Origin: Corallococcus caeni
GTDB taxonomy: Bacteria > Myxococcota > Myxococcia > Myxococcales > Myxococcaceae
DNA length: 64,000 bases
Strand: one strand, 5' to 3'
Assembly: GCF_036245885.1 (NCBI RefSeq)
Contig: NZ_BTTX01000008.1
The notes under the pieces were generated by a model, which was not told the DNA's origin, ran no database searches, and worked only from the letters and a program-made list of their open reading frames with translations. Of the stretch, positions 36,196-52,436 are shown piece after piece; positions within the stretch are counted from its first letter, which is position 1, and each line of letters starts with the position of its first letter. A program made the position numbers and the translations under genes.

Positions 36196-37795
36196 CATGT
36201 TCAACGTCATCAACGTCTCCAAGGCCTACGGGCCCAAGAAACTTTTCGAGGAGGTCAACGTCGCCTTCTCGCCGGGCCGTCGCTACGGCCTGACCGGTCC
36301 GAACGGGGCCGGCAAGTCCACGTTCATGAAGATCCTCGCGGGTGACGAGGAGCAGGACATGGGCGAGATCATCCGCCCGCGGAAGCTGGGCATCCTGCGC
36401 CAGGACCACTTCCGCTACGAGAACGACCGCGTCATCGACGTGGTGCTGATGGGCAACCGCCACCTGTGGGCGGCCATGGACGAGAAGAACAAGCTCCTGG
36501 CCAAGGCCGACATCACGGAAGAGGACGGCAACCGGCTGGGTGAGCTGGAAGGCGTCATCGCGGAGGAGGACGGCTATTCAGCGGAGAGCGACGCGGCCAC
36601 GCTGCTGGCGGGCCTGGGCATCGAGGAGTCCTTCCACGAAGAGCCCATGCGCCAGCTCACCGGCGGCCTGAAGCTGCGCGTGTTGCTCGCGCAGGCGCTG
36701 TTCGGCAAGCCGGAAGGACTGCTGCTGGACGAGCCCACGAACAACCTGGACATCGACTCCATCCGCTGGCTGGAGAACTTCCTCCATGCGTACGAGGGCG
36801 TGCTGATCACCATCAGCCACGACCGGCACTTCCTGAACTCCATCTGCACGCACATCGCGGACATCGATTACGAGACCATCATCCAGTACACGGGTGGTTA
36901 CGACGACATGGTCCGGCAGAAGTCGCAGCTGCGGACCCGGGTCGAGTCCGAGACGGCGGAGAAGAAGAAGAAGATCGCCCAGCTGCAGGACTTCGTGGCG
37001 CGCTTCCACGCGGGCACGCGCGCGTCGCAGGTGCAGAGCCGCATCAAGCAGATCGACAAGCTGAAGACGGAGGACCTGAAGCGCTCGAACATCGCGCGGC
37101 CGTTCATCCGGTTCGACCAGAAGGTGGTCAGCGGCCGTCAGACGCTGATGTTCGAGGGCCTGAAGAAGTCCTTCGACGGGGTGCCGGTCATCAAGCCGTT
37201 CAAGGGGCTGGTCTGCAAGGGCGAGCGCATCTGCGTCATCGGCCGCAACGCGGTGGGCAAGTCCACGCTGGTGAAGATGCTGGCGGGGCAGCTGGAGCCG
37301 GACGCGGGCACCATCACCTGGGGTCACCAGGCGACGGTGGGCTACCTGCCGCAGGACCACCACGGCGTCATCCACAAGGGCACGACGTGCTTCGGCTACC
37401 TCCGGGAGATCAGCGAGAAGCTGACCAACGAGGAGATTTCCGGCGTGCTGGGCCGGATGCTCTTCTCCGGTGAGGAGCGGATGAAGCCCACGGACACGCT
37501 GTCCGGTGGTGAGACGGTGCGCGTGCTGTTGTCCAAGCTGATGATCATGCAGGACAACGTGCTCATCCTGGACGAGCCGACGAACCACCTGGACCTGGAG
37601 TCCATCGCGGCGCTGGCGGAAGGCCTGTCGAAGTTCGAAGGCACGGTCATCTGCGTGACGCACGACCAGGAGCTCATCTCCGAGGTCGCGACCCGCATCT
37701 GGAGCCTGGAGCAGGGCAAGGAAGTGCTCGACTTCAACGGCCCGTATTCGGAGTTCATGGAGAAGCACGCGGACGCGGCGCAGAAGCGCCGGTAG
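36196..37795 (+). CDS. ABC-F family ATPase (EttA/YbiT-like translation factor), two ABC cassettes
   Basis: The ATG at 36196 gives two Walker A sites (GPNGAGKST; GRNAVGKST), two LSGG signatures, and a linker with a charged helix. No TM domain. Confidence 0.9.
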
Positions 37796-37824
37796 TCAGC
37801 ACAGGCTCACAGCAAGGCAGTGCC

Positions 37825-37869
37825 AAACGCCGCCCGTTTCCGGTCCTCCGGAAGCGAGGCGGCGTTTTC
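37825..37869 (+). terminator. intrinsic terminator (10-bp GC stem aaacgccgcc/ggcggcgttt followed by TTTTCG) after the ABC-F gene; also copy 1 of a ~60-nt repeat
   Basis: aaacgccgcccgtttccggtcctccggaagcgaggcggcgttttcg. A related copy lies at ~47262-47330. Confidence 0.6.
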
Positions 37870-37978
37870 GTGGGCTGTCCATCCCTCTTCCGGGTGATGT
37901 CCCTTTCGTGGGGAATGGGCCAGAACCTGGGGTGCCAGGTCGTCCCACCCATGACGACCCGGGGGGGCGAAGACATTC

Positions 37979-40900
37979 ATGACTCCGCACGACTCGGTCC
38001 TGCTGAAAGAGCTTCAGCGGCAACGCACCCGGTTGCTGGATTTGAGCGCAACCAACCGGCTCCTCCACTTCAAGCACACGGCCAGGACGTCGCTGCGAAT
38101 CGTGGATGAACTTCCAGGTGTCGTCTTCGAGCGGCTGAGCAACCACCGCGCGCTCACGTTCCTCCCGGTGACGCCACCGGAGCAGGACTCCGAGGAACAG
38201 GAGGACTTCGACCCCGCCGCCGCGACCGTGGTGTTCTCGATGACCGAGGAGGTCCCCAGCAAGGACGCCCGGCAGAAGCTGCTGCTTCAACAGGCGAAGC
38301 GGCTGGGCATCGACACCCGGTATGAGCTGCCCAAGGCGGCCCCCACGGAGAGCGGCACCCCTCCTCGCAAGCATCAGGACCGCCACCTGCAGACGTTGTA
38401 CTTCCCGGAGGATCTGGAGGGCCACCTGCACCGCCTCCAGGGGCTCGCGCAGACAGCCATCCAGGAGACCGGAGCCAACCTGCTCCACTTCGTCTTCGGG
38501 TTCCTGCGCTGGTACGAGTCTGGTGATACCCGGCAGGAGAAGCCGCGCAGCGCACCGCTCGTGCTCATGCCGGTGAGTCTCAAGCGCGGCCAGGCCCACC
38601 CTGACACCCAGGTACACGCTTACGAGGTCGACTACAACGAAGGCGAGTCCATCGAACTGAACCTCACGCTCCAGGAGAAGCTGAGGCAGGAGTTCGGCAT
38701 CACGCTGCCGACCTTCTCCGCCGAGGAAGGCCTGGAGGCGTACTTCGACAAGGTGACGGCGCTGCTCAAGGGCCTGCGCCCCGGGTGGGGGCTGGAGCGG
38801 CAGGTCACGCTGACACTGCTGTCCTTCGGGCGGCTCCTGATGTGGCGGGACCTGGAGCCCACCCGATGGCCGCAGAACAGTTCCCCGCTGGCCAACCCGC
38901 TCGTTCGCACGCTGATGGGAGGACAGGCGCAGGCGAATGAACCGGGAGGAGGCGCAGGAGGCGGAGGCGGCCTCAGGGAACGCCGAAGCGAGGTCTACGA
39001 CCTGGACTCGCCGGAGCTGAATCCTCCACCCCTCATCACGGACGCGGACAGCAGTCAGCACAGCGTGCTGGTGGACGTGCTCCGGGGTGAGAACCTGGTG
39101 GTGCAGGGACCGCCCGGCACCGGGAAGTCACAGACCATCACCAACCTCATCGGAGCGGCGCTGGCGGCGGGCAAGACCGTGCTGTTCGTCACGCAGAAGC
39201 TGGCGGCGCTGGAGGTCGTCTCACGCCGCCTCCAGCAGGCGGGGCTGGGTGAGTTCTGCCTGGAGCTGCACAGCCACAAGACCCAGAAGCAGCAGTTCAT
39301 GGAGGACCTGCGGCGAAGGCTCAACCTGGACGCAGGCGCGAGCGCTCCCCGGCCGCTCACCGAACAGGTCTCGAGCGCCGCAGGCATCCTGCGCGCGCAT
39401 ACCGAGCGGATGCACAAGCCATTCGGGGCGCTCGGCATGTCACCGCACGACGTGTTCTGGAAGGTCAGTCGCGCGGAGGCGGAGCTGGGAGAAGCAGTCG
39501 TCGAGTTGGAGGGCCTGCGCTTCGAGGGTGCGGAGACCATGTCCTCCACGGCGCTGGCGGAGGTCCGCGACACGGTTCGGGGCCTCGCTGCGCAGTTGGG
39601 GGACGTTCGCCGCGTCGCTCCCCTCCTCTGTGCCCACCCCTGGGCGGGGGTGACGAACGACGCGCTGACGGACAAGGACCGCCAGACACTCGTTCAACGG
39701 ATCTCGGCCTGGGAAGAGTCCACGCTGCTCCTGGAGAAGGCGCTGGCTGCGTTCACAGCCCGAACTGGCGTCACCCCCAGATCGAGCGTGCTTGCGGCGG
39801 ATACCCTGGTTTCCAACGTCCGGGTCCTTCCGCCCCTCCCGGAGGGGGCTCCTCCAGAGCTGATCCCTACCCTGCTTGATGCCACGCAGCGCGAGGGATT
39901 GCGCGCCCTGCTCGATGCCATCGAGTCGGTCCAGGCGCGGTGGGCGGGGCTGGAGGCGGGCTGGCGTGCCCGGGAGGATCTGACCGTACCCGCCGTGCGT
40001 GACGCGCAAGCCATCCTCGACACGGCCCTGCGCCTGCTTTCGCCAGACACCACGCTCGTCACGCTGACACGCGCGCATGAAGCGGTGGATGCAGCAGCCC
40101 GGGCCCTGGCACAGGGACGCCGGTTCATCGCCGCCGTGGCCTCATGCCTGGAGGTGGACGTCACGCCCTGGACGCCCCAGCAGCTCCAGACGTTTGTCCG
40201 CGTCGTCGAAGCGATGGCGGTCCTGGATGACGCCGCCCTGGAGTGGCGGGACGCGCGTTGGGTCGAGCGCGAGGCCGAGGAGTTGCTTCGGAAGGCCGGC
40301 AGCACCTGCTCGGAGCTGAAGGACCAGGCGCGAGCGCTCGCGGTGCGCTTCATGCCCGAACTCGTTCCTCCGCTCACGACGCTCAAGGCACATGCCGTCG
40401 CGGTTTCGACCGCGCCCTTCATCCCCTGGCTCTCGGGTGCATGGCGTGCGGCGAGGCGGGACTTCCAGGCCATGTCCCACGGCGTCCGTCCGACGCGGCC
40501 CGTGTTGCTCCAGGGTTACACCGACCTGCTGGCGCACCACGCGGCGCGGGAGCGATTCCACGAGGACGCGACCTTGAAAGCGACCCTGGGCGCTCGCTTC
40601 CAGGGAGTCGATACGCGTTTCGACCGGATTCTTTCGTGGTTGGACGCCTACCGGAACGTCGATGCATTGCTCCTTTCGCTGGGAGAGCGAGGGGCGGAAC
40701 TCCGCCGCGCGGTGTTGGAGCGGCCGGCGAGCCATTGGCAGGAGGCCCTGGCGAAGACCCGCGTGTGGAGTGACGAGTTGCTCCAGGCCCGCGACGTGAG
40801 CACTACCGTGCAGGAAGCCGCGACGCGCATGGGTCTGCCGCACGCACCCTGGAATACCGAACCCTGCGGCAAGGCCCAGGACAGCCTCGACGCCTTGCTG

Positions 40901-43183
40901 AAGCACCTGGGTGAGGTCCTGAGCTGGGCACGGAAGGGAGATGCCCCGCCGTCCTTGACCCTTTCCCAGCTCCAGGGACAGCTGCGCCGGGTGCGCGACG
41001 CCTGCGAAGCCGAGGACCGGCTGGAAGCGCATGCCCCGGCGGCGGGATTACCAGGGATTGAATACCGGGGTCGGAAGACGTCCCTCGCGGGCCCTCGAAG
41101 CGCCCTGCGCCATGTCGACGTCCTCTTCGCGGCGCCACTGCCCGAGGGGCTGGTGGAGTGGCTGCTGAGGAAGGACACGCCACGGAGGCACGCGGACCTG
41201 CTCACCGCCACGCATGACGTGGAGGTAGCTCTCACCGCCTATAGCCAGTCCGCCAGTCAGGCCTGGGAGCTGGGAAGGATGGCACCCGGCACCTGGGAGG
41301 AACCCGCCGCCGAGAAGCCACTCCAGGCGACGGTCATGCGCCTGCGCCAGGCTCGAAGCCAGTCCGCGACGCTCGCGGCCTGGTGCGCGTACCAACGGCA
41401 GAGGCGCGCCGTCGCGCGAGCGCGGAGCACCCTGGGGTTCCTGGAGCGCGTCGACACCCGTCCTGGCCTGAAGCCTGAGAGGTTGGTCACGGCCTTTGAC
41501 GCCGTCTTCTTCCGCTCCCTGGCGGAAGCCATCCTGCGAGACCAGCCGGAGCTCGATCAATTCACGGGCGCGGTTCACGCCTCCCAGCGTGAGGAGTTCG
41601 CCCGCCTGGACACGCATTGCATCGCAAAGCAGGGCCGATACCTGGCGCGTCAACTCAGTCAGCGTCCGGTTCCTCCCGGCGTGTCGTCGGCAAAGGTTGC
41701 GGGCATGACGGAGACGCATCTCCTGCGGCACGAGCTGGGCAAGAAGCAGCGGCACCTCCCAATTCGCGAGCTGGTGGCACGCGCCGGCAGTGCACTCCAG
41801 ACGTTGATGCCCTGCTTCATGATGGGGCCGCAGTCCGTCGCCCAATACCTGCCCGCCGGGCAGCTGACCTTCGACCTGGTCGTGATGGACGAGGCCAGCC
41901 AGATGCGTCCCGAGGACGCGCTGGGAGCCATTGCCCGAGGTCGGCAATTGGTGGTGGTGGGCGACCCGGAGCAGCTTCCTCCCACCAGCTTCTTCGCGCA
42001 GGTGGAGCAGGAGGACGTCGAAACCGAGGGCGAAGCGGGAGACGAGGTCCAGGGTCCATCCTTCCTGGAGGACTCGGAGAGCATCCTCACGGCGGCGGCG
42101 GAACGGTTTCCCATGCGCATGTTGCGTTGGCATTACCGGTCCCGCCACCCCTCGCTCATCGCCTTCAGCAACCGCGAGTTCTACAACGGCGACCTCATCA
42201 CCTTCCCCGCGCCCGGCGAGCAGTTGGACGGGCTGGGCCTCCACTTCCACCGCGTGGAGCAGGGATTGTACGAGTCCAACCGGAACGTTCCCGAGGCCCG
42301 CGAGGTGCTGGCGGCGGTGAAGGCGCATGCGCGTACGCGCCCGGAGCAGAGCCTGCTGGTCGTCACGTTGAACTCGAAGCAGCGAGAGCTCATCGACGAC
42401 CTGGTGACCGCCGAGGAGAAGAACGACGCGGCCCTCCGGGCCTTCCTGGCGAAGTGGGAGAAGTCCCCCATGCCCTTCGACGTGAAGAACCTGGAGAACG
42501 TCCAGGGCGACGAGCGCGACGCCATCTTCGTGTCGGTCACGTTCGGTCCCGACAAGAACGAGCGCTTCCGGATGAACTTCGGGCCCATCAATCAAGCGGA
42601 CGGGTACCGCCGGCTGAACGTCCTCTTCACGCGGGCGCGGTGCGCGCTGACGGTGTTCGCGTCCTTCGACCCGTCGGAGCTCAAGGTCCAGGAAAGCAGT
42701 CCCCGCGGGATGCGCGTCCTGCAGCGATACCTGTCCGAAGCCAAGGGAGAGAAGGTGGCGCACGGCGTGGGCAGCGGTCGGCCACCCGACTCCGACTTCG
42801 AGATTGCCGTCGCGAAGGCGCTCGTCGCGCGGGGATTCGAAGTGGTCCCGCAGGTGGGCGTCGCGGGTTATTTCATCGACATGGCCCTGCGGCATCCTCG
42901 GCAACCGGGCCGTTACGTCCTTGGCGTCGAGTGTGACGGAGAGAGGTATCACTCGTCACGTTCCGCCCGGGACCGGGACCGCCTCCGGGATCAGGTGCTG
43001 AAGGGCCTGGGATGGAGGCTGCACCGCATCTGGTCCACGGACTGGTTCCGCTCGCCATCGGAAGAGGTCGCCCGGATCGTCGCGCACGTTGAAGAGGTGC
43101 TTCGGGAAGAGGCGGCGGAGCTGCCGGCCGTGGTGCGCGAGGAGCCCGCGGCGGAGAACCAGATGCGCGCCGTCAGCGCCTGA
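37979..43183 (+). CDS. 1734-aa DNA helicase-related protein: DUF4011-like N-terminus, Upf1-like SF1 helicase core (AAA_11/AAA_12), DUF3320, and a C-terminal DUF559 (Vsr/restriction-endonuclease-like) nuclease
   Basis: Motif I VVQGPPGTGKSQTITNLIGAALAAGKTVLFVTQ, motif II LVVMDEASQ, VVVGDPEQLPPT, YRSRHPSLIAFSNREFYNGDL, and a C-terminal VPQVGVAGYFIDMALRHPRQPGRYVLGVECDGERYHSSRSARDRDRLRDQVLKGLGWRLHRIW (PD-(D/E)xK Vsr-like). GC is lower than the core by eye. Confidence 0.85.
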   Translation: MTPHDSVLLKELQRQRTRLLDLSATNRLLHFKHTARTSLRIVDELPGVVFERLSNHRALTFLPVTPPEQDSEEQEDFDPAAATVVFSMTEEVPSKDARQKLLLQQAKRLGIDTRYELPKAAPTESGTPPRKHQDRHLQTLYFPEDLEGHLHRLQGLAQTAIQETGANLLHFVFGFLRWYESGDTRQEKPRSAPLVLMPVSLKRGQAHPDTQVHAYEVDYNEGESIELNLTLQEKLRQEFGITLPTFSAEEGLEAYFDKVTALLKGLRPGWGLERQVTLTLLSFGRLLMWRDLEPTRWPQNSSPLANPLVRTLMGGQAQANEPGGGAGGGGGLRERRSEVYDLDSPELNPPPLITDADSSQHSVLVDVLRGENLVVQGPPGTGKSQTITNLIGAALAAGKTVLFVTQKLAALEVVSRRLQQAGLGEFCLELHSHKTQKQQFMEDLRRRLNLDAGASAPRPLTEQVSSAAGILRAHTERMHKPFGALGMSPHDVFWKVSRAEAELGEAVVELEGLRFEGAETMSSTALAEVRDTVRGLAAQLGDVRRVAPLLCAHPWAGVTNDALTDKDRQTLVQRISAWEESTLLLEKALAAFTARTGVTPRSSVLAADTLVSNVRVLPPLPEGAPPELIPTLLDATQREGLRALLDAIESVQARWAGLEAGWRAREDLTVPAVRDAQAILDTALRLLSPDTTLVTLTRAHEAVDAAARALAQGRRFIAAVASCLEVDVTPWTPQQLQTFVRVVEAMAVLDDAALEWRDARWVEREAEELLRKAGSTCSELKDQARALAVRFMPELVPPLTTLKAHAVAVSTAPFIPWLSGAWRAARRDFQAMSHGVRPTRPVLLQGYTDLLAHHAARERFHEDATLKATLGARFQGVDTRFDRILSWLDAYRNVDALLLSLGERGAELRRAVLERPASHWQEALAKTRVWSDELLQARDVSTTVQEAATRMGLPHAPWNTEPCGKAQDSLDALLKHLGEVLSWARKGDAPPSLTLSQLQGQLRRVRDACEAEDRLEAHAPAAGLPGIEYRGRKTSLAGPRSALRHVDVLFAAPLPEGLVEWLLRKDTPRRHADLLTATHDVEVALTAYSQSASQAWELGRMAPGTWEEPAAEKPLQATVMRLRQARSQSATLAAWCAYQRQRRAVARARSTLGFLERVDTRPGLKPERLVTAFDAVFFRSLAEAILRDQPELDQFTGAVHASQREEFARLDTHCIAKQGRYLARQLSQRPVPPGVSSAKVAGMTETHLLRHELGKKQRHLPIRELVARAGSALQTLMPCFMMGPQSVAQYLPAGQLTFDLVVMDEASQMRPEDALGAIARGRQLVVVGDPEQLPPTSFFAQVEQEDVETEGEAGDEVQGPSFLEDSESILTAAAERFPMRMLRWHYRSRHPSLIAFSNREFYNGDLITFPAPGEQLDGLGLHFHRVEQGLYESNRNVPEAREVLAAVKAHARTRPEQSLLVVTLNSKQRELIDDLVTAEEKNDAALRAFLAKWEKSPMPFDVKNLENVQGDERDAIFVSVTFGPDKNERFRMNFGPINQADGYRRLNVLFTRARCALTVFASFDPSELKVQESSPRGMRVLQRYLSEAKGEKVAHGVGSGRPPDSDFEIAVAKALVARGFEVVPQVGVAGYFIDMALRHPRQPGRYVLGVECDGERYHSSRSARDRDRLRDQVLKGLGWRLHRIWSTDWFRSPSEEVARIVAHVEEVLREEAAELPAVVREEPAAENQMRAVSA

Positions 43184-43196
43184 ACAGGAGACAACC

Positions 43197-44762
43197 ATGA
43201 CCACGATGATTGCCGTTGGACTGGGCGTATTGAGTCTGTTGCTCCTCGGGTTGTGGTTCCAGACACGAAGTCGGCTCAAGGCCGTCCAGGAGCGCTTCAA
43301 GCCCATCCTGGACCTGGAGGCCGAACGGCGGCGGGTGGCCGAGGAGTTGACGCGGGCGCGCACGGACGCGGACGCTGCGCTGGCCGCGGAGCAGAAGCGG
43401 GTCCGCGAAGAGTTGGCGAAAGCCAGGAGCGAGGCGGACAACGCGCTGGCGGCGGAGCAGAAGCGGGTGGAAACCCAGCTGGCCCGGGCCAAGGCGGACG
43501 TGGAGCAAGCCATCACGGCCGAACAGGGCCGGGCGAAGGCGGAGCTGAGCCGGATCCGTGAAGAGACGGCGAAGACAACCCAGAGCGCGACACGCGCCAT
43601 GGAAGAGGCGGAAGCGCGGCGAAAGCAGGCGAACACCGAGCGAACCAGCCTGGAGTCAGGCCTCGCCCGGTTGAAGGCCGAGCTGAAGGCCCTTGAGGAA
43701 GAGGAGGTCCTGCTCTCCTTTGGCTTCTACAAGCCGGTGTACGCCCTCTCGTCCGTGAAGGAATACGAGGACCGCCTGGAGAGGCTCCGCGATTCTCAGA
43801 AACAGATGCTGAAGAACAAGGAAGCCGCCACGTGCTCTCTCCAGTGGGAGGTCAATGGCAGCAAGGCGGAGGGCAAGAAGCAGACGGACCGTACCTTGAA
43901 GCTGATGCTCCGGGCCTTCAATGGCGAAGCGGATGCGTGTGTCGCGAAGGTTTCGTACAAGAACGTGAAGGCAATGGAGACGCGCATCGAGAAGGCAGCT
44001 GCCGCCATAAATGGCCTTGTGGAGATACAGCGGTGTGTCATCGACAGGCGCTACGTCAAGCTCAAGGTCGAGGAGCTGATGCTCGCATATGAGCACTCGG
44101 AGAAGGTGCAACAGGAGCGGGACGAACAGCGCCGCATCCGGGAGCAGATGCGAGAGGAGGAGGCCGCCCAGCGCGAGCTGGAGAAGGCGAAGCTGGAGGC
44201 GGAGCGCGAGTCGAAGCGTGACGCCGAGGCCCTGGCGAAGGCGAAGGCGGACTACGATCGGGCAAAGGGCTCCGAGCAGCAGAAGTTGCTGGAACGCATC
44301 GCCGAGCTGGAGCGCCGCGTGGCCGAAGACCTGGAGAAGCAGCGAGCCATCTCCCAGGCACAGCTCACGCGGACAGGGCACGTCTACGTCATCTCCAACA
44401 TCGGCTCCTTCGGGGAGGGCGTCTACAAGCTGGGGATGACGAGGAGGCTCGTGCCCCAGGACCGCATCGACGAGCTGGGGGATGCATCCGTGCCCTTCGA
44501 GTTCGACGTCCACGCCATCATCCGGACCTCGGATGCCCCGGCCCTGGAGAACGCACTCCACAAGACGTTCGCGAACAGGCGCGTCAACCGCATCAATGAG
44601 CGCAAGGAGTTCTTCCGCGTCAGCCTGGATGAGATCGCCCAGGCCGTGCGAAAGCACCACGGGGAGTTCGAGCTGACCCAGCTTGCTGAGGCCGCGGAGT
44701 ACCGTAAGACCTTGGCGCTCCAAGAGGAGGAGCAGGGCGGTCGACGCGAGCGGGCCGCTTGA
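43197..44762 (+). CDS. membrane-anchored DUF4041-like coiled-coil protein with a C-terminal T5orf172 (Mug113/GIY-YIG-like) nuclease domain
   Basis: An AGGAG RBS precedes the ATG at 43197. N-terminal TM helix (MTTMIAVGLGVLSLLLLGLWF), a long E/R/A/K coiled-coil, and a C-terminus GHVYVISNIGSFGEGVYKLGMTRRLVPQDRIDELGD...FEFDVHAIIRTSDAPALENALHKTFANRRVN typical of T5orf172. It starts 14 nt after the helicase stop. Confidence 0.8.
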   Translation: MTTMIAVGLGVLSLLLLGLWFQTRSRLKAVQERFKPILDLEAERRRVAEELTRARTDADAALAAEQKRVREELAKARSEADNALAAEQKRVETQLARAKADVEQAITAEQGRAKAELSRIREETAKTTQSATRAMEEAEARRKQANTERTSLESGLARLKAELKALEEEEVLLSFGFYKPVYALSSVKEYEDRLERLRDSQKQMLKNKEAATCSLQWEVNGSKAEGKKQTDRTLKLMLRAFNGEADACVAKVSYKNVKAMETRIEKAAAAINGLVEIQRCVIDRRYVKLKVEELMLAYEHSEKVQQERDEQRRIREQMREEEAAQRELEKAKLEAERESKRDAEALAKAKADYDRAKGSEQQKLLERIAELERRVAEDLEKQRAISQAQLTRTGHVYVISNIGSFGEGVYKLGMTRRLVPQDRIDELGDASVPFEFDVHAIIRTSDAPALENALHKTFANRRVNRINERKEFFRVSLDEIAQAVRKHHGEFELTQLAEAAEYRKTLALQEEEQGGRRERAA

Positions 44763-44802
44763 ACTCGAACCTGCCTGCGCTTCTGATAGCGTTCGCCTCC
44801 CG

Positions 44803-46560
44803 ATGAGTTCCTACCCGTTCCTGCATCCGAAGGATGCGCTCCCAAATGCTGTCATTGCTGCCTCTAAAAACCGGAAAATCGCGTTTCTAGTGGGCTCTCC
44901 CTTGTCGACGCAGGAACGAGCCGACGCCCCTCAGGTTCCTGGGGTGGATGCGATGTTGGATCTCATCCGCGAGTACGTTCCGGCCGGATTCCAAGCGAAA
45001 TTCGACACGGAGCGCGAGTACACCAAAGAAAACAAATACCAATGGGCCATGCGCTTCGTGCAAGGCCTTGGTGACAAGGATGTCTCCGAGAAGGTTGTTC
45101 GGGAGGCGGTGCTTCGCGCACGGGTGGACCGCCAACGCGATGGAGCGGCGACCGACGACCAGCTGGATCTGGACCATGGCGGATGGGCCTTGCCGCCCGC
45201 GACGGAGCACCTCGGTAGATTGCTGGTGGAAAGAGCTGAGACGTTTGGTCCTGTCTTGACCACGAACTTTGATCCTCTCATCTCGGCATCGGTGAAGGTG
45301 GCTGGCGGCGATTTCCATCGCACCATCGTGGCCAGCGACATCCCGTTCGGGCAGACAGTCCCCGCCTCATCCAAATCCACACACATCATCCATCTTCACG
45401 GCTACTGGCACCGTTCGCCTACGTTACACACGGGTATCCAGCTTGGTCGCGAGCGCAGACACGTCTCCGCAGAGCTGATCCAGATTCTTCAAGACCACAC
45501 GCTGGTCGTGATCGGGTACGGCGGGTGGGATGACGTCTTCACCCAGACCCTCGCAACCATTGACATCGACCGACACAAGGACGTCGACATCCTCTGGGGG
45601 TTCTACGGAGAAGAAGACGCCGTGATTGAGGCCCGCAATCCAAATCTCTTCAGCAGAGTCGCCAATCTGAGAGGTAGCAAAGGGCTTCGCTGCTATGGCG
45701 GAATCGACTGCCATAAGTTCTTCCCCGACCTGCGGAAACAATTTGGCGCGGCCAGCGCCCAGCTCTCGAACCCTCGAACCGCGGGCCAACCGACACCGCC
45801 ACCCTCCACGCGATCCGACACAAGCGCCAAAGCCACGGTGCAGACTGCGCCGACGTCGCACAGCCCCCCGAAACCTCCTGAGCCCGCGCCACCCGTGCCG
45901 GCTGGCTCAACGCCAGCGCCGAGCACCGCGACTGTCACGGTCTCCCCAGTCATCACGGTCTCTCCTGTCATCCAAGTCCCAGCACCGCCTGTTACACCGA
46001 GTCGTTCGGGCTCCAGTCGGCTCGCGGTCGTCATCGCGGGAGGGGTGATCGCAGGGGGGATTGCCGTGGTCTCGCAGCGACCTGAAAGCGGCAAGGGATC
46101 ACCACCGCTGACGGATGTGCGTCCCATCGAGCAGCCACCTTCCGCCTTCGTGCCCATCGCTCCAGGTGCACAGATCAGGTCTGTGCGCCAGCAGCACCAG
46201 GTCGTGCCTGCGTCAGAATCCGAGCGTGGATCGCGGATCGCTCAGCTTCCGAGAGGTCGCTACGCCTTCCTTCGGCTGGATTCGATTCCGACCTACAACG
46301 CCAACACTCCGACCTACGGGAACCTGCCAGACGGAATCGAGGTTCACCGTGTACGAGCCACTGGCGAACTCTTCCTCGTTGGCTATGCCGAACCTCAAAC
46401 CGTTACGGCGCTCGCATCTACAACCCCCGCGCCCATCGTTCTCGCGGCCACGCCAGGAGGACGGCGCACCCAGGTTGCGAGCGTTCCTGTGATCAGGATG
46501 TCAACGGCCGAAGTGCGGATGGACAAAAGCACCCGCGTTCTCGTGCTTCAACTCAACTAA
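44803..46560 (+). CDS. SIR2_2-type (Sir2-like NADase fold) domain protein with a TM segment and a Pro-rich C-terminal region
   Basis: SIR2_2 hallmarks IAFLVGSPLS, VLTTNFDPLIS, IIHLHGYW and LVVIGYGGWDD. A TM helix (LAVVIAGGVIAGGIAVV) follows. GC is markedly lower (~58% by eye) with atypical codons (aaa, gat, ttg). Confidence 0.75.
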   Translation: MSSYPFLHPKDALPNAVIAASKNRKIAFLVGSPLSTQERADAPQVPGVDAMLDLIREYVPAGFQAKFDTEREYTKENKYQWAMRFVQGLGDKDVSEKVVREAVLRARVDRQRDGAATDDQLDLDHGGWALPPATEHLGRLLVERAETFGPVLTTNFDPLISASVKVAGGDFHRTIVASDIPFGQTVPASSKSTHIIHLHGYWHRSPTLHTGIQLGRERRHVSAELIQILQDHTLVVIGYGGWDDVFTQTLATIDIDRHKDVDILWGFYGEEDAVIEARNPNLFSRVANLRGSKGLRCYGGIDCHKFFPDLRKQFGAASAQLSNPRTAGQPTPPPSTRSDTSAKATVQTAPTSHSPPKPPEPAPPVPAGSTPAPSTATVTVSPVITVSPVIQVPAPPVTPSRSGSSRLAVVIAGGVIAGGIAVVSQRPESGKGSPPLTDVRPIEQPPSAFVPIAPGAQIRSVRQQHQVVPASESERGSRIAQLPRGRYAFLRLDSIPTYNANTPTYGNLPDGIEVHRVRATGELFLVGYAEPQTVTALASTTPAPIVLAATPGGRRTQVASVPVIRMSTAEVRMDKSTRVLVLQLN

Positions 46561-46566
46561 AAGACA

Positions 46567-47247
46567 ATGAAACTCACCCATCGAATCCTTACTTGCCTTG
46601 GCTTGGCGTCCTTCTTGTTGCTTGCCGCATGTGGGCCCGAGGACCTCAGCCCCGGCGGCCCCGACCCCATCACGGATGACCCGCCTCCGCTCACCGAGCT
46701 TTGTACCGCGGAGAGCTGTGAAGGCTGCTGCGACCCAACCACCAACAAGTGCGTCATGACTCGCACCGCCGACGCATGCGGTCCGAACGGCAGCACCTGT
46801 TCCAAGTGCACAACCGGGATGATGTGCCACCCTTCCAAGCAGCAGTGCTACACCCCCACCATCCGCACGAAGATCCAGCCCCTTCGTGCGCAGATCGCGC
46901 CGCTGGATCCCTCTGACAACAGCGACTGGGACGTTGATGGCTCGCCGCCGGATGTCGTGATTCAGCTGTCGTGCCCCAACACGCCAGCCGCCGTACCCCC
47001 TTCGGAGGAAGTTGAGAGCTTCACCCCCACCTGGACGAAGGGCTCATGCGACGTCCTCAGTACCGATCTGCTTTCGGCCCCCATCCAGTTCACCGTCATT
47101 GATGTTGACGCCATCTTCGACGACCCGATTGCGTCGGCGCAGTACCAGATGACCCGCGCCGACATCGACCGTGGCGTCGTGGAGCTCACGGGTTCGAGTG
47201 CATTGCTCTCCGTGGCCTTCCAGGTCACCACCTACTACGCCGAATAG
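46567..47247 (+). CDS. Cys-rich lipoprotein (paralogue of the gene at 51768..52388)
   Basis: Lipobox LLLAACG. An N-terminal Cys-rich module (CTAESCEGCCDPTTNKCV...CSKCTTGMMC). The C-terminal domain has DWDVDGSPPDV. It starts 7 nt after the SIR2-like stop. Confidence 0.7.
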   Translation: MKLTHRILTCLGLASFLLLAACGPEDLSPGGPDPITDDPPPLTELCTAESCEGCCDPTTNKCVMTRTADACGPNGSTCSKCTTGMMCHPSKQQCYTPTIRTKIQPLRAQIAPLDPSDNSDWDVDGSPPDVVIQLSCPNTPAAVPPSEEVESFTPTWTKGSCDVLSTDLLSAPIQFTVIDVDAIFDDPIASAQYQMTRADIDRGVVELTGSSALLSVAFQVTTYYAE

Positions 47248-47261
47248 CCCGTCACCGCACT

Positions 47262-47330
47262 GCGCTCCCAAGCAGTGTCACCGCCGCCCGCTTCCAGTCC
47301 GTCCGGAAGTGAGGCGGCGGGTTCGTCTCG
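47262..47330 (+). repeat. copy 2 of the ~60-nt terminator-like repeat (about 80% identical to 37808-37875)
   Basis: caagcagtgtcaccgccgcccgcttccagtccgtccggaagtgaggcggcgggttcg compared with caaggcagtgccaaacgccgcccgtttccggtcctccggaagcgaggcggcgttttcg. Both copies lie immediately 3' of a plus-strand stop codon. Confidence 0.55.
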
Positions 47331-47518
47331 AGCCGCTACTCCTCACGAGGGATGCACAGGAGGAGTGAAACCGGTCAGAACCCTCTCCTCTACTTGGAGA
47401 TGAGGACTCACCCCTCCTCCTCCCTGCGGTTGAATCTTCCCATCATCTCCACGTCCGGAAGGGACGGGAGTCGTTGGCACCGCGGGCCAGTCCACGCGAG
47501 CCATTTCTGGGGGAGCGC

Positions 47519-48886
47519 ATGTCCAATCAGAGCTTCGAGGTCATCTCGGTCCCACCTCAGCCACGGCGGGTCATTCTGGTCTCGATTGATTGGACGCGCG
47601 ACAAGGATCCTCGCCTTCCGCTGGGACATGCTTCCATCGTCGCGGCACTGCGACATGCAAACGTCGACGTGCGAGCGTTCTCCTTTGCCGTCAATCGCTC
47701 TGACTTCAGTGAGGAGCACATCCTGTGGAGCGTGCTTGAAAGTGCACGGGGACTTGAGGCTCGGGACGTGGACCTGGGCCTTGGCGTCTACGTGTGGAAC
47801 GACCGGGTGGTGAAGAGGCTTCTGGGGGCGGTCCGCCGGAGCGGATTCGCGGGACGTATCATCCTCGGAGGGCCACAGGTCTCCTACGCGGGACCGGGCC
47901 TTGAGCAGCTCTATCCCGAGGCGGATGGATTCGTCCGGGGTTATGGCGAAGAGGCCATGGTGGCGATTGCCGCTACGTCCGAGCGGGTCCGGTTTCCAGG
48001 AGTCCATTGGGCTGGCCAGTTGGATGCTGGCGTCCAAGCACAGGCGAAGCTGGAGACGCTTGCTTCTCCCTTCCTCGAAGACGTGATTGAACTTTCAGGG
48101 GAGCAACGGTTCATCCGGTGGGAAACCCAGCGAGGGTGTCCCTTCCGCTGCTCGTTCTGCCAGCATCGGGAGGCTGGCAGCCGGTTGCGTCGCCGCGATC
48201 TCCCCATGGCACGACTTGAGGAAGAGATTGAGCTGTTCGTGTACTCGGGAGTGAACGACATCGCCGTGCTGGATCCGCTCTTCAATCTCGGGGATCACGC
48301 GCTGGCGGTGCTGCGGACTTTCCAGCGGCTTGACTATCGCGGACGGCTATCTTTGCAGTGCCACTTCTCGACGTTGGATGATGAGTTCCTCGACGCCTGC
48401 GAAGGGCTCGCGGTCCGGCTTGAGTTTGGCCTGCAGACCATCCACGAGAAGGAGGCACGCGCCGTGGAGCGCGTGAATCATCTCGAGAAGGTGGTGGAAG
48501 GAGTCCGCAAGCTCCACGCGCGCGGCATCCCTTTCGAGGTTTCCATCATCTTCGGGCTGCCCGAGCAGACGTTGGAGTCCTTTCGACAAACGGTCGACTT
48601 CTGCCTCCGTCGGCAAGTGCCCGTGCTCAAGGCGTTTCCCCTCATGTTGCTACGGGGAACCCAACTGGAACGTGAGCGGGCACGATGGGGGCTGGAGGAG
48701 AATGACGCCCCCATCCCAAGCGTCATCCGCAGCCACACGTTCAATGAACAGGAGTGGAGTCGGATGGAGGCGCTCGCGGAAGCACTCCGCCAGACTGAAG
48801 GCAGGCATCCGGATTGTGTCGAAGCCTTGGAGGTGCGGGTGGTCTCCCTTCCGGACACTTCCGGCTGGTGGTCACCAGCGGCATAG
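47519..48886 (+). CDS. B12-binding-domain radical SAM enzyme
   Basis: An N-terminal Rossmann-like B12-binding region, the CxxxCxxC motif (QRGCPFRCSFCQH), and a TIM-barrel-like remainder. The ATG at 47519 follows GGGGGAGCGC. Confidence 0.85.
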   Translation: MSNQSFEVISVPPQPRRVILVSIDWTRDKDPRLPLGHASIVAALRHANVDVRAFSFAVNRSDFSEEHILWSVLESARGLEARDVDLGLGVYVWNDRVVKRLLGAVRRSGFAGRIILGGPQVSYAGPGLEQLYPEADGFVRGYGEEAMVAIAATSERVRFPGVHWAGQLDAGVQAQAKLETLASPFLEDVIELSGEQRFIRWETQRGCPFRCSFCQHREAGSRLRRRDLPMARLEEEIELFVYSGVNDIAVLDPLFNLGDHALAVLRTFQRLDYRGRLSLQCHFSTLDDEFLDACEGLAVRLEFGLQTIHEKEARAVERVNHLEKVVEGVRKLHARGIPFEVSIIFGLPEQTLESFRQTVDFCLRRQVPVLKAFPLMLLRGTQLERERARWGLEENDAPIPSVIRSHTFNEQEWSRMEALAEALRQTEGRHPDCVEALEVRVVSLPDTSGWWSPAA

Positions 48887-49005
48887 GGACCTGACGGCAG
48901 CTACGCCTCGACAGGCGGCTTGGTGCGGGTCATGTAGCTTCATGCGGTCAGTGTCCCCTTATGATGCCGGAGGGGGACGGGCATCAGTGGGTATGATGCA
49001 GGGCC

Positions 49006-50457
49006 ATGTACCCGAGACGCCGTCTCCTGGCCCGAGGACCGTGGTTGTTTGATCTCAGACCGCAGCGGCTCATCGTCTTCCACGGAGCCGACGGCGTGCG
49101 CCGGGAGGCCAGTGGAGACGTGCCGGATCATCCGTCCGCGCCCGTGGTGCTCGCCGCGCTCAATGAGGGACAGGACGTCTGGGTGGGAAGCGGGGATCGG
49201 CGTGTCTTCTCCGTGGGGGCCGGCGCGAGCGCTCCCGTCCAGGCCTTTCCGAAGGAGTGCTTCGATCTCACCTGCGATGGAGACCGGCTCATCGGAACGG
49301 TGGTGGACAGCGCCCACAAGCTGACCACCCTCTTCACGACCGATGGGTCCGGGCAGCGATGGGAGCCCATGACCTTGCCCAAGCCCGTGCTCGCCACGCA
49401 CGGGTACGGATACTCCGAGGGGCGCCCCCTCAGTCAGTCCCCCGATGGGGCGTTCCTCGACACGAGCCCTTTTGGAATCACCGTCCTGGAGAAGGGGCGG
49501 GGCCGCGTCTACGTGCTCCGCGCGGGGGCTGCTCAGCCGGAGGGCGCGCTCCAGGTGGAGCCGGGTGGTGAGGAGGACAACTGGCGGGCCGTGGCCACTC
49601 CCCACGGCGTGCTCCTCCTGCTCGTCGTCAACTACCGGCAGACGGCGCTCCTCCATTTCGCGCTCGATGGCACCCTGCTCGGCTCCATCCCGGAGAGCGA
49701 GGATGAGGATGATGCTGCGGATGACCTGACCTGGAGCGGTGCCGGGGTGTGCGTCCTCGACGCGGCCCGGGCGCTCCTCTTCGTCCAGGACAAGGCCCTC
49801 CTGGTGTCCCTGCCCGGGCTCCAGGTGCTCGAAACGCTCGTCGGGGAGTGGCCCCGCTTCGTTACCGTGACTCCCGCGGGGCCTGACCGGTGGTGGGTGG
49901 GCGCCGAGGACAGTGACGCGCTCTTCCTGCTCACCGCCGAGCCCGGACACCCCTTGCGCCTCCACGCCTCGAACCGCCTGGTGAACCCAGGCGCGCCGCT
50001 CATGCACGTGGGCTACAAGACGCCCGCGTTCCACTGGACCGAGCACTCCTCGGGGCCACTGACCGTGTCCGCGCCCGTGACCGAGACGTGGCGGGCGGTG
50101 GTGCGCAATGACGGGACCTCGTGTGAGGCCGTGCGGATCCGGGTGTCCGGGGCGCTCGTCGGCGCTCGCGTGGTGGACGTGAGCGTGCGGTATCGCGGTC
50201 AGCCACTCCCGATGGTGAATGAGAACCGCGTGAACCTCGTGGGGGTCTCCGCCGGATTGGAGGCAGGCGCTGTCGCGGAGCTGGAGGTGACCTTCAAGCC
50301 CCGGAGCGAGGGCTCGGGACCGCTGACCATCACCGTCGAGCCGTGCTCCTGGCAATCGCAGGCCAAATACTGGCAGTGGCAGGACAAGGAGGAGCCTCGC
50401 GTCCTCACGGTGACGGGCCATCCGGCATCCGCCTTGTTCCCGCTCACGGTGGAGTAG
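49006..50457 (+). CDS. hypothetical protein (483 aa), beta-rich
   Basis: Coding-like ORF with no recognisable catalytic motif. Its 3' end overlaps the convergent pseudokinase gene by 14 nt. Confidence 0.5.
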   Translation: MYPRRRLLARGPWLFDLRPQRLIVFHGADGVRREASGDVPDHPSAPVVLAALNEGQDVWVGSGDRRVFSVGAGASAPVQAFPKECFDLTCDGDRLIGTVVDSAHKLTTLFTTDGSGQRWEPMTLPKPVLATHGYGYSEGRPLSQSPDGAFLDTSPFGITVLEKGRGRVYVLRAGAAQPEGALQVEPGGEEDNWRAVATPHGVLLLLVVNYRQTALLHFALDGTLLGSIPESEDEDDAADDLTWSGAGVCVLDAARALLFVQDKALLVSLPGLQVLETLVGEWPRFVTVTPAGPDRWWVGAEDSDALFLLTAEPGHPLRLHASNRLVNPGAPLMHVGYKTPAFHWTEHSSGPLTVSAPVTETWRAVVRNDGTSCEAVRIRVSGALVGARVVDVSVRYRGQPLPMVNENRVNLVGVSAGLEAGAVAELEVTFKPRSEGSGPLTITVEPCSWQSQAKYWQWQDKEEPRVLTVTGHPASALFPLTVE

Positions 50458-51769
50458 CGCGGACCTTCTCGGGCTCGGGCGCAGCGCTCATCTTCCAGAG
50501 CAGCGCGCCGCCTCCGAGCAGGCTCCCCAGACCCACTGCCGCCGCGAGGATCCAGCCTCGTCTCAAGCAGGGCCGTGCCTGGGTCTCCGGATCGTCGCTC
50601 GCGGTGATCTGCTGGAGGAGCTGGGCCACCTGCCGCGGTGTCACCGGCTCACCCTCCGAGCGGATGAACTGCTCCAGTTCCTCCCGGAACACGTGGCAGT
50701 CCGGGTAGCGCTGGTCCCGATCCTTCGCGAGCGCCCGGGCGAGGATGGCTCGCAGGACTCCGGGCAGGTCCGGGCGGTGCTGCTCGGCGGGCACCATGGG
50801 CTCGGACATGACGGCCCGAGGCAAGTCCCATTCGGACGTGGACGAAAAGGGCCTGCGCGTGGTGAGCAACTCGTAGAGCACCACCCCGAGCGCGTAGACG
50901 TCGACCCGCCGGTCCACCCGCTCGCCCCTTATCTCCTCGGGCGCCATGTACACGTAGCTGCTCATGACGGGGAGCGGGTGTTCGGGGGTCCACCGGGACC
51001 GGAGATGGTCGATGCCGAAGTCCACCACCTTGGTCGTCCCCTGACGCGACAGGAGGACGTTGTACGGCCGGAGGCAGCGGTGGATGAGCCTCAGCGGCTC
51101 GTGCGTCTCGGGGTGGGTCAGGTCGTGGGCATAGGCGAGCCCCTCGCAGGCTTGCGAGATGATGCGCGCGCACAGCGTCGCCGGCAGGGTCATCCGCTGG
51201 ACCGCCAGGTGCTGGATCAACCTGCTCAGGCTGATCCCATCGACGTGCTCCCTGGCGAGGAAGTACGTGCCGTCCGCCTCACCGAAATCAAAGACCTTCA
51301 CGAGGTGCGGGTGCGTGAGCCGGGCGGCGGTCCTCGCCGTGTCGAGGAACAGCTCCGGGAACTCCATCTGCTCGGCCATGTCCGGCCGGAGGCACTGGAG
51401 CACCAGCGTCTTCTCGATGCCCAGCGGGCCAGCGGCCTTGGCCAGATGGTCCTCGATGATGCCTTCGGCGAGCAGGCGGATGCGCTGGTATTGGCCGACG
51501 TGGGATGTCACGAGACAGATGAATAGCAGATCGCCGATCTCATCGAGCGCTGGCAGGGAACGGGGCGTGCCACGCGACGATGGAGCCTGGACGGACCCAT
51601 GGCTACACGGGGTGGCGCCATGAAGCTCGACCTCGTCGTGCTGTTCACCGCAGGCAACGACAACCACGTCGCCATCTGGCGGAAGTTCCGTGAGGATCTG
51701 CTGCCCCGATACATCCTGGCCGCGGTCACCGCGAAGTGAACCCCCTCTGATAGCCTTCCCGGCCGTCAT
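50444..51769 (-). CDS. Ser/Thr-kinase-fold protein with degenerate catalytic motifs (predicted pseudokinase), a C-terminal TM segment and a short tail
   Basis: The kinase fold is recognisable (YQRIRLLAEG...; HPHLVKVFDFGE; VVDFG; YMAPEEI; DVYALGVVLYELLT). However, the Gly loop is A-E-G-I-I-E, the beta3 Lys is Leu (TLVLQ), and HRD is H-R-C (LIHRCLRPYN). The ATG at 51769 overlaps the divergent lipoprotein ATG (CATG); an internal GTG start is possible. Confidence 0.6.
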   Translation of the reverse strand: MTAGKAIRGGSLRGDRGQDVSGQQILTELPPDGDVVVVACGEQHDEVELHGATPCSHGSVQAPSSRGTPRSLPALDEIGDLLFICLVTSHVGQYQRIRLLAEGIIEDHLAKAAGPLGIEKTLVLQCLRPDMAEQMEFPELFLDTARTAARLTHPHLVKVFDFGEADGTYFLAREHVDGISLSRLIQHLAVQRMTLPATLCARIISQACEGLAYAHDLTHPETHEPLRLIHRCLRPYNVLLSRQGTTKVVDFGIDHLRSRWTPEHPLPVMSSYVYMAPEEIRGERVDRRVDVYALGVVLYELLTTRRPFSSTSEWDLPRAVMSEPMVPAEQHRPDLPGVLRAILARALAKDRDQRYPDCHVFREELEQFIRSEGEPVTPRQVAQLLQQITASDDPETQARPCLRRGWILAAAVGLGSLLGGGALLWKMSAAPEPEKVRATPP

Positions 51770-52388
51770 GAAAACGCCCTGCCTGCTCCTGATGGCCCTG
51801 TCGTGCGCCCTCTTCCTCCCGGCCTGCGGTGAGCCCGAGTGCACTCCGGAGAGCTGCGCGAATGGCTGCTGCTCCGTGAGCAACGTGTGCGTTCTCGACC
51901 TCGGCGACGCCCTCTGCGGCTCCAACGGCGCCCGCTGTGAGAGCTGTCCCGACGGCAATGTCTGTCGGCTCGATACCCGGGCCTGTTACGCGGGCGTGAT
52001 GCGGACGCGGGTGCAGCCCCGCCGGGCCTTCATCGCGGACGTCGATCCGGACAACGGCGAGGACTGGGATTCCGACGGCTCCCCGCCCGACGTCGTCGTG
52101 GAGATGCGCTGCCCCTCCGCTCCGGAGCGCACCCGCACCGCCGAGGACGAGAGCTGGGAGCCCGAATGGCGCTCGGGCAGCTGTGAGGTCATCACGTCCA
52201 ACCTCCTCCAGCACCCCATCGAAATCTCCATCTTCGACAACGATGACTTCACCTTCGATGACGAGTTCGGCGGAACCTCCTACCAGGTCACCCGCGCGGA
52301 TCTGAACAGGGGCCACATCGAGCTCGCGTTTCCTCCCATCGTGGAGTCCCTGGTCATCGACCTGACCCACACCTATTCGCCCCAATGA
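51768..52388 (+). CDS. Cys-rich lipoprotein (paralogue of the gene at 46567..47247)
   Basis: MKTPCLLLMALSCALFLPACG lipobox. The same Cys-rich N-module and a C-domain with DWDSDGSPPDV and YQVTRADLNRGHIEL, matching YQMTRADIDRGVVEL in the paralogue. Confidence 0.7.
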   Translation: MKTPCLLLMALSCALFLPACGEPECTPESCANGCCSVSNVCVLDLGDALCGSNGARCESCPDGNVCRLDTRACYAGVMRTRVQPRRAFIADVDPDNGEDWDSDGSPPDVVVEMRCPSAPERTRTAEDESWEPEWRSGSCEVITSNLLQHPIEISIFDNDDFTFDDEFGGTSYQVTRADLNRGHIELAFPPIVESLVIDLTHTYSPQ

Positions 52389-52436
52389 GCAGTCCGCCGC
52401 TGTAACCGTCCCGGCGCCCGGGGCGTAGCCCAGTGC

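Follow-up and report, generated by a model that had tools for sequence, protein, structure and literature searches.

A 64,000-nucleotide stretch of the Corallococcus caeni genome (contig NZ_BTTX01000008.1 of assembly GCF_036245885.1; hereafter the window) carries a 13.87 kb island (window 37875-51744) between the core genes for an ABC-F ATPase and a YihY/BrkB protein. It is probably a defence island of mosaic make-up at a chromosomal hotspot, with cargo that is swapped by homologous recombination via the flanks and that comprises four independent units, one of them a module of a SIR2 protein and a lipoprotein. The island is missing from the matching site of C. llansteffanensis (locus L009; loci in relatives are given by such numbers), where blastn matched window position 37874 to L009 11682 and window position 51745 to L009 11689, so that the two ends are joined with 6 bp between them, and where the gene order is ABC-F, lipoprotein, P460-like gene and YihY. 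The left junction lies directly past the terminator hairpin of the ABC-F gene (~37830-37875, its stem seen in the junction alignment), and the right junction about 20 bp upstream of the start codon of a resident lipoprotein gene, here named lipo2. A preliminary description of the sequence had drawn an island from 37808 to 52400, and had proposed aligning the block to relatives to see whether it is an indel on a tgt/ABC-F ... YihY/rml backbone. The empty site confirms the indel, and the proposed start was accurate to within ~70 bp; the proposed end was ~650 bp too far, since the lipoprotein gene at 51765-52388 belongs to the conserved flank.

The island was also lower in GC content than its surroundings, as had been noticed, with 0.657 compared to 0.711 in the left and 0.708 in the right flank, and in sliding windows GC dropped from 0.70-0.75 to 0.61-0.69 over approximately 36-53 kb. 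For GC at third codon positions (GC3), we used open reading frames (ORFs) picked by their high-GC coding pattern; island ORFs had values of 0.68-0.86 versus a mean of 0.910 (sd 0.047) for 30 ORFs outside (Mann-Whitney p = 9e-5). The earlier estimates, made by eye, were 2-4 points low: the genes for the SIR2 protein, the lipoprotein and the radical SAM (rSAM) enzyme measured 61.4%, 62.4% and 62.2% GC instead of ~58-60%, and the helicase gene 67.8% instead of 62-65%. The composition had been said to change right after the ABC-F gene, which holds for GC3 but not for total GC, as the latter is already reduced inside the ABC-F gene (65.6%). Since this gene has a GC3 of 0.92, the true compositional break concerns third codon positions and falls immediately behind ABC-F. 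Composition was not uniform with the flanks, nor was the block universally syntenic, as GC3 differs and the block is absent in L009.

To obtain relatives, a genome collection was scanned with the ABC-F protein, which gave 80 loci in Myxococcota. ABC-F was 95-100% identical among all Corallococcus loci, and in 11 loci of the Archangium, Cystobacter and Vitiosangium type it was directly followed by YihY. In sister strains, the slot between the two contained Tiamat TmtA (PADLOC 9.7e-110) and a NERD-UvrD helicase (L008), a 67%-identical homologue of the antiphage nuclease SNIPE together with a DUF3800/PDC-M04A gene (L003), an IS66 transposase and a hydrolase ahead of genes for the helicase-nuclease Hhe and SNIPE (L007), or a Kelch/Big_7 protein (L004). 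The ABC-F-YihY interval is plastic across Myxococcaceae, and its use for defence is specific to Corallococcus. Thus, two features of a hotspot were found, namely conserved flanks with an empty site and other defence cargo, Hhe alleles included, in the slot of sister strains. The remaining one, an integrase, att repeats or a tRNA target, was lacking in the window: we found no integrase or transposase domain in the eight main island ORFs, as the preliminary description had also stated, when these ORFs were scanned against Pfam, NCBIfam and PADLOC (smaller ORFs lay outside the scan), and no tRNA genes, Rfam matches or att-type flanking direct repeats in the window. A hotspot would thus have opened between ABC-F and YihY in Myxococcaceae, with Corallococcus using the slot for anti-phage cargo that would be exchanged through the conserved flanks and not by a resident integrase.

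The arrangement resembles the P. aeruginosa hotspot cDHS1, which also has conserved core flanks, variable size and cargo, a lower GC than the genome, no one mobile element that goes with it and numerous genes of unknown function (PMC10250203). It differs from cDHS1 in its flanks, ABC-F and YihY, and in that defence use of the slot is limited to Corallococcus. The right flank of cDHS1 carries a sizeable DUF4011 gene together with a radical SAM gene (PMC10250203), and members of both families (37979-43183 and 47519-48886) are found 4.3 kb apart in the C. caeni island.

Other rearrangements were seen in the slot of relatives. In L002 (C. aberystwythensis), a second, 94.5%-identical copy of the final 556 bp of ABC-F is located 5.1 kb downstream of the intact gene (L002 6894-7449, equal to window 37330-37885, and L002 5236-5784), with an IS630-like HTH transposase fragment between the copies, which suggests an insertion that doubled the 3' end of its target gene. 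The IS66 and IS630-like fragments occur in sister strains only and not in the window. In Myxococcus and Pyxidicoccus (L013-L026, L075), the interval contains between one and three giant proteins (850-1600 aa) with CHB_HEX_C_1/Fn3_assoc repeats, their number differing by species (for example L013 11735-16573, minus strand).

Based on blastn breakpoints against relatives, the island consists of four segments: the genes for the Hhe-like and SNIPE proteins (37875 to ~44735), the SIR2 and lipoprotein genes (~44735-47256), the rSAM gene (~47256-48962), and the genes for an unknown protein and a pseudokinase (48962-51544). Every segment was found without the others in some strain, and also within this scheme SNIPE occurs without Hhe (L003), Hhe and SNIPE without the SIR2 gene (L010, L012), and the SIR2 and lipoprotein genes without rSAM (L086). 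When genes were compared with those of C. interemptor, synonymous divergence (dS) was 0.16-0.25 for core genes and 0.20-0.25 for the unknown protein and the pseudokinase, and 0.44 for Hhe, 0.73 for SNIPE, 0.74 for rSAM, 1.07 for the partner lipoprotein (lipo1) and 1.0-2.2 for the SIR2 protein. The values above core for Hhe, SNIPE, SIR2/lipo1 and rSAM indicate that these units have been exchanged with more distant lineages, and the unequal dS, together with the independent presence and absence among close relatives, points to ongoing exchange at a recombination hotspot, in which allele replacement presumably continues by recombination through the conserved flanks. The preliminary description had taken the lack of an integrase for a sign of an old or stabilised acquisition, which is contradicted by module dS values of 0.44 to >1 versus 0.16-0.25 in the core and by the independent presence and absence in close relatives. 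The ratio of nonsynonymous to synonymous divergence (dN/dS) was 0.07-0.21 in Hhe, SNIPE, the SIR2 protein, lipo1 and rSAM, indicating that the defence-type cargo genes are intact, functional and under purifying selection. The mobile part would thus extend from 37875 to ~48960 and would comprise the Hhe-type, SNIPE, SIR2/lipo1 and rSAM units. An obligate Hhe-SNIPE pair was considered and ruled out, since SNIPE is found alone in L003 and the dS values of the two differ.

The first island gene (37979..43183, plus strand) encodes a 1734-aa protein that was identified with Pfam, NCBIfam and PADLOC. Its N-terminus contains DUF4011 (PF13195 1.8e-33, residues 18-235), which is followed by an SF1 (Upf1-like) helicase with AAA_11, AAA_12 and AAA_30 matches, a Walker A motif GPPGTGKS at 377 and a Walker B motif DEASQ at 1304, and the C-terminus is a Vsr-like nuclease (PF18741 MTES_1575 6.7e-37, and DUF559) with the motif ECDG at 1651. 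Hhe is reportedly a single-gene system of Gao et al. 2020, represented by NCBIfam NF042953, 'DUF4011 domain-containing anti-phage protein Hhe'. The Hhe architecture recurs in the C. caeni protein over its whole length, from DUF4011 through the SF1 helicase, whose Walker A and B motifs are intact, to the Vsr-like nuclease with its ExDG motif at the C-terminus. The NCBIfam Hhe_antiphage model matched residues 12-1724 with 1402.6 bits. Two results weigh against a straightforward assignment: this score is below the 2000-bit equivalog cut-off, and the top PADLOC model was the unvalidated candidate PDC-S37 (1245 bits), ahead of Hhe (928 bits). The NCBIfam model 'ProA' also matched, with 1123 bits, which is under its 1500-bit cut-off; a literature search for this model gave nothing usable. 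Judged by its sequence, the protein is a divergent Hhe-like protein, or subfamily, and not an equivalog. Its dN/dS was 0.12, and two Hhe alleles that are just 69% identical circulate in Corallococcus. The hhe gene of E. coli reportedly acts against lambda, T3, T7 and PhiV-1, which requires the glutamate in the Vsr domain (bioRxiv 10.1101/2022.06.16.496414). The ECDG motif may be equivalent to this residue, E1731 of E. coli Hhe. The SF1 helicase would track on foreign DNA, which the Vsr-like nuclease would cut.

The following gene (43194..44762, plus strand; PADLOC, Pfam) encodes a 522-aa homologue of SNIPE, or PD-lambda-1. PADLOC PD-Lambda-1 (PDLC03977) matched with 1.1e-153 over model positions 51-477 of 496, and Pfam gave DUF4041 (PF13250) at 9.6e-21, T5orf172 at 4.4e-18 and MUG113 at 1.5e-17. 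An N-terminal transmembrane (TM) helix (residues 2-22, Kyte-Doolittle 2.23) is followed by a coiled region, and the GIY-YIG motifs are GHVYVISN, YKLGMT and KEFF. PD-lambda-1 is reportedly to be credited to Vassallo 2022. SNIPE acts at the inner membrane, where it cuts the DNA of a phage while this is being injected, and is defined by a membrane anchor in the N-terminal region, DUF4041 and a GIY-YIG nuclease (PMC13190303, Saxton et al. 2026). At the level of sequence the C. caeni protein has all of these, with one TM helix in its first 70 residues, DUF4041 and a C-terminal GIY-YIG (T5orf172) domain. It differs from the known SNIPE in that its myxobacterial host is without the ManYZ-dependent lambda entry route, and in an unrelated N-terminal adapter region, as expected for this family (PMC13190303). 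As an inner-membrane-tethered GIY-YIG nuclease, it would cut phage DNA as it is injected.

The third unit is the one of main interest. Its first gene (44803..46560, plus strand) encodes a 585-aa protein with a SIR2_2 domain at residues 1-322, in which N155, D157 and H199 were invariant in the alignment, after which a Pro-rich linker leads to a single TM helix (residues 405-424) and then to a C-terminal domain of ~140 aa that lacks annotation (window 46075-46557), here named Cdom and modelled confidently (pLDDT ~90). The SIR2 domain is structurally nearest to the defence NADases ThsA, KomC, SIR2-HerA, DSR2 and Avs5, and is 38-40% identical to the SIR2 domain of SIR2-NB-ARC/NACHT proteins. PADLOC matches covered the SIR2 domain only, at 1e-8 or weaker, and SLOG/ThsB, HerA, pAgo-APAZ, a STAND NTPase and the DSR2 tail-tube-binding region were absent from the protein and its neighbours. 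It thus has the SIR2_2 fold and the catalytic Asn, Asp and His in common with the defence SIR2 NADases (Thoeris ThsA, SIR2-HerA/Nezha, DSR1/DSR2, SPARSA, KomC and Avs5), and differs from them in the Pro-rich linker, the single TM helix, the predicted extracytoplasmic domain and the C2 lipoprotein partner. This partner, lipo1 (46567..47247, plus strand, 226 aa; identified by lipobox, alignment invariants and AF2 model), begins 7 bp behind the SIR2 gene. Its sequence includes the lipobox LAAC|G and a module in which eight Cys residues are invariant, and its C-terminal part is a beta-sandwich of the C2 fold; AF2 modelled residues 98-226 with a pLDDT of ~90, and Foldseek returned the C2 domain of cPLA2 (1rlw, E 2.5e-6) and that of perforin. 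The invariant acidic residues are D122, D129, D179, D181, D185 and D186.

Cdom is rare: a full HMMER search of 1.84 billion representatives gave only 19 representative clusters, and in all 19 a TM helix stood before the domain, which was C-terminal. The heads in front were SIR2_2, TIR_2, PNP_UDP_1 (one also with EAD5) or a Rossmann fold of the FAD/NAD type, and a few members were headless. We examined the genomic contexts of TIR (L090), PNP (L091, L092), Rossmann (L093) and distant SIR2 versions (M. faecalis L084/L085 and the metagenomic L087/L088). Using local HMMs, the next gene on the same strand encoded a lipoprotein of the lipo1 family at 10 of 10 distinct Cdom loci, which cover four types of head and five or more mutually unrelated genomic contexts. 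Pfam and PHROG matches to Cdom were not found even at E <= 5, and no precedent for a SIR2/C2-lipoprotein architecture was found in PADLOC 2.0, Pfam, NCBIfam 20 or literature searches, so that a Cdom/C2-lipoprotein module whose SIR2, TIR, PNPase and Rossmann heads can replace one another appears to be undescribed. SIR2, TIR and PNPase domains are canonical NAD+- or nucleotide-targeting effectors of bacterial conflict systems, and the signature of such systems is a constant module on which heads that degrade NAD+ or nucleotides are exchanged (PMC8195603). Divergence within the island is fastest for Cdom and lipo1, which show 58% and 69% identity versus 89-90% for their neighbours. In M. faecalis (L084/L085 8768-9976), a 402-aa HSDR_N gene lies 25 bp upstream of the pair on the same strand, and may be a third component there.

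Lys and Arg counts support an N-in/C-out topology in 18 of the 20 long members, the other two being ties. The SIR2 protein has no signal peptide, which, together with the excess of Lys and Arg N-terminal to the helix, would place the SIR2 head in the cytoplasm. SIR2-TM-Cdom and lipo1 are therefore a candidate envelope-coupled abortive-infection module, in which a cytoplasmic SIR2 NADase head would be joined by one TM helix to a periplasmic Cdom. The latter would contact lipo1, the C2 domain of which would bind the membrane, perhaps in a Ca2+-dependent manner. Disturbance of the envelope by a phage would alter the contact between lipoprotein and Cdom and activate the head, most simply by clustering, after which NAD+ would be depleted and the infection aborted. 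Tentatively, and with the odds somewhat against it, we propose that the Cdom/C2-lipoprotein pair represents a new class of trans-envelope immune receptor, in which a sensor signals via a single TM helix to interchangeable suicide heads; the sensor, a small conserved domain plus a Ca2+/lipid-binding C2 lipoprotein, would detect phage or another envelope insult. Zorya and Kiwa are also envelope-coupled defences with detection at the membrane level, and have no sequence or architecture relation to the SIR2 pair. Infection is likewise detected at the membrane and not in the cytoplasm by SNIPE (PMC13190303), again without kinship in sequence or architecture. Unlike these three systems, the pair has a NADase, TIR or nucleosidase head as output and a lipoprotein as partner.

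Several observations weigh against the defence model of the pair. The pair fits no PADLOC system, and is limited to Myxococcota-like sequences. The short headless Cdom homologues P0251 and P0252 have an N-terminal TM helix with more Lys and Arg after it, predicting a cytoplasmic Cdom, although they may be truncated gene calls. Furthermore, the dN/dS of Cdom and lipo1 was 0.13-0.21, so that a signal of positive selection is absent from whole-domain averages, and positive selection on the two was dropped as an explanation. As lipo2 has no Cdom partner, members of the lipoprotein family can also occur apart from an effector. Finally, the neighbours of the pair family elsewhere include polymorphic-toxin immunity genes (Imm52, Imm11/AHH) instead of classic defence genes. 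The latter point leads to an alternative, namely that the SIR2-TM-Cdom/lipoprotein pair is not directed against phage but serves cell-cell conflict or kin discrimination among myxobacteria, and could, for example, detect lipoprotein toxins of foreign origin or the exchange of outer membrane, to which it would respond with self-killing or growth arrest. The restriction of the family to essentially Myxococcota-type sequences would suit such a role, as would the predicted extracytoplasmic location of the sensor parts and the presence of genes for polymorphic toxins and immunity proteins (Imm52, DUF2380, Gmx_para_CXXCG, and an AHH nuclease with Imm11) next to the PNP and Rossmann versions; moreover, one Cdom homologue carries the EAD5 adaptor, which is typical of conflict systems in multicellular bacteria (PMC8195603). 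However, in Corallococcus the pair directly follows Hhe and SNIPE in a slot that elsewhere holds Tiamat and NERD-UvrD, in M. faecalis it follows a restriction-type HSDR_N gene, and the SIR2 fold is nearest to anti-phage NADases, which together make kin conflict an unlikely, though still serious, explanation.

The resident lipo2 (51765..52388, plus strand; tblastn/HMM, Pfam C2 5.8e-5) is an orphan paralogue of lipo1 in the right flank, ~38% identical to it and with the same Cys pattern and C2 domain. It is kept in Corallococcus with or without the island (L003, L004, L008-L012, L081, L086), at an elevated dN/dS of 0.38-0.43. An earlier module could have left it behind, or it could be an envelope protein of general function on which the effector family draws. 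That lipo1 is a lipo2 orthologue displaced by recombination was ruled out, as L025 has both genes next to each other and, in genomes that are unrelated, genes of the lipo1 type come after Cdom genes.

The rSAM gene (47519..48886, plus strand) encodes a 455-aa B12-binding radical SAM enzyme (Pfam B12-binding and Radical_SAM) with the motif CxxxCxxC at residue 207, and its closest solved relatives are TokK, CysS and TsrM. Like lipo1, it is 100% identical to a protein of C. caeni. It matched the PADLOC candidate PDC-M51A with 1.9e-152 over model positions 5-416 of 420; no PDC-M51B match was found among nine neighbouring proteins at E <= 0.01 with PADLOC, and a literature search for PDC-M51 gave nothing usable. 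Homologues with 74-86% identity occur in the same island of C. interemptor, in a Myxococcus strain, in Stigmatella and in a planctomycete; no conserved partner was found in five contexts, and no plasmid homologue was found. One could imagine that the enzyme is a working defence component of the PDC-M51 type, perhaps one that makes a modified nucleotide or cofactor and cooperates with the SIR2 pair or the DUF4011 helicase. This would fit the PDC-M51A match, the low GC3 (0.715, as in the SIR2 pair) and the copy in Myxococcus sp. MISCRS1, which is 74% identical and adjoins NERD-UvrD helicase, HerA-like and IS21 genes. However, besides the missing PDC-M51B match and the missing partner, the Stigmatella and planctomycete copies sit among metabolic genes. 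In addition, the rSAM gene is absent from the otherwise similar L086 island that does have the SIR2 pair, identities of 53-57% across phyla suggest a conserved enzymatic role, and the nearest solved enzymes are biosynthetic C-methyltransferases. We therefore doubt that it is a defence component, and consider it a solitary gene whose part in defence is unproven.

Less probable still is that the five or six plus-strand genes from Hhe to rSAM form one cooperative multi-gene system. They are co-directional with gaps of only 10, 40, 6 and 271 bp, their order is kept in C. interemptor, and Hhe and SNIPE occur together in the window and in eight other loci (L005, L006, L007, L010, L012, L025, L081 and L086). 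Yet each unit occurs without the others, dS differs two- to five-fold between units for the same genome pair, and Hhe and SNIPE each suffice alone in E. coli (bioRxiv 10.1101/2022.06.16.496414; PMC13190303), so that a single system is very improbable. That there is no horizontally acquired island at all, its lower GC merely reflecting amino-acid composition or a local mutation bias in a conserved block, as the low total GC of the core ABC-F gene (65.6%) might suggest, is refuted by the GC3 of ABC-F (0.92 versus 0.68-0.86 in island genes) and by the absence or replacement of the block in close relatives (empty in L009; alternative cargo in L001-L004, L008 and L011).

The last segment differs from the rest of the cargo. 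It contains a gene for a 483-aa protein (49006..50457, plus strand) with no detectable domain and no match in Pfam, NCBIfam, PADLOC, PHROGs or PDB sequences, for which orthologues exist in L001-L004, L081 and L086 (dS 0.25, dN/dS 0.39), and a gene for a membrane-anchored pseudokinase of ~355 aa (50444..51511, minus strand; Pfam Pkinase 5.8e-28). In the latter, the Gly loop is degenerate, the VAIK Lys is replaced by Gln and HRD by HRC, DFG and APE are retained, and a TM helix is present at the C-terminus; the Lys and HRD changes are shared by the orthologues (alignment of two orthologues and PknB). Its dS was 0.20 and its dN/dS 0.57-0.68. The two genes are always paired tail-to-tail, overlap by 14 bp in the window, and are co-conserved in at least six Corallococcus loci; the dN/dS of both is raised. 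The PADLOC PD-T4-6 matches of the pseudokinase (7e-57) are generic to the kinase fold, and the VAIK Lys and HRD Asp expected of a competent kinase are both replaced; beyond such generic kinase models, no defence model matched either protein. The core-like dS (0.20-0.25) marks these as older resident genes, so that this 2.8 kb is probably an older insertion, vertically inherited since, and not part of a defence system. All domains named in the preliminary description were thus recovered (DUF4011/AAA_11/AAA_12/MTES_1575/DUF559, DUF4041/T5orf172, SIR2_2, B12-binding/Radical_SAM and the Pkinase fold), while its view of the content as that of a defence island was right in part: it agrees with the end-to-end matches of the Hhe-like and SNIPE proteins, with the kinship of the SIR2 domain to defence NADases and with the other defence genes in sister slots, but not with the pseudokinase/483-aa pair, with its core-like dS and lack of a specific model, nor with the rSAM gene, which is solitary, occurs in metabolic contexts and lacks a PDC-M51 partner.

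The flanks consist of conserved genes. On the left is the core ABC-F gene (36191..37795, plus strand; NCBIfam ABC-F family ATPase 1.8e-185), and on the right, beyond lipo2, a P460-like gene (52437-52922, plus strand) and YihY/BrkB (52980-54152, minus strand), both assigned by Pfam and conserved synteny. A UvrC-like GIY-YIG gene by tgt (33469-34662, minus strand) is core, 85-95% identical across Corallococcus, and lies outside the island despite its nuclease fold.

The island itself is ordinary, a defence hotspot of a known type in which Hhe-like and SNIPE genes are stacked, and it documents such a hotspot in myxobacteria, a group whose phage defence has been little studied. The main interest is the Cdom/C2-lipoprotein pair rather than the island. 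With its two genes in 2.4 kb, the SIR2 module is compact; its catalytic and lipobox residues are clear and natural head swaps exist, which makes it directly testable. Known SIR2, TIR and nucleosidase effectors are triggered by cytoplasmic sensors or small-molecule signals. If the link between lipoprotein and effector is functional, infection or another envelope insult would here be read outside the cytoplasm and converted directly into NAD+ or nucleotide depletion, and, if true, bacteria would have in this pair a counterpart to immune receptors that cross the membrane once and have outputs of the TIR type.

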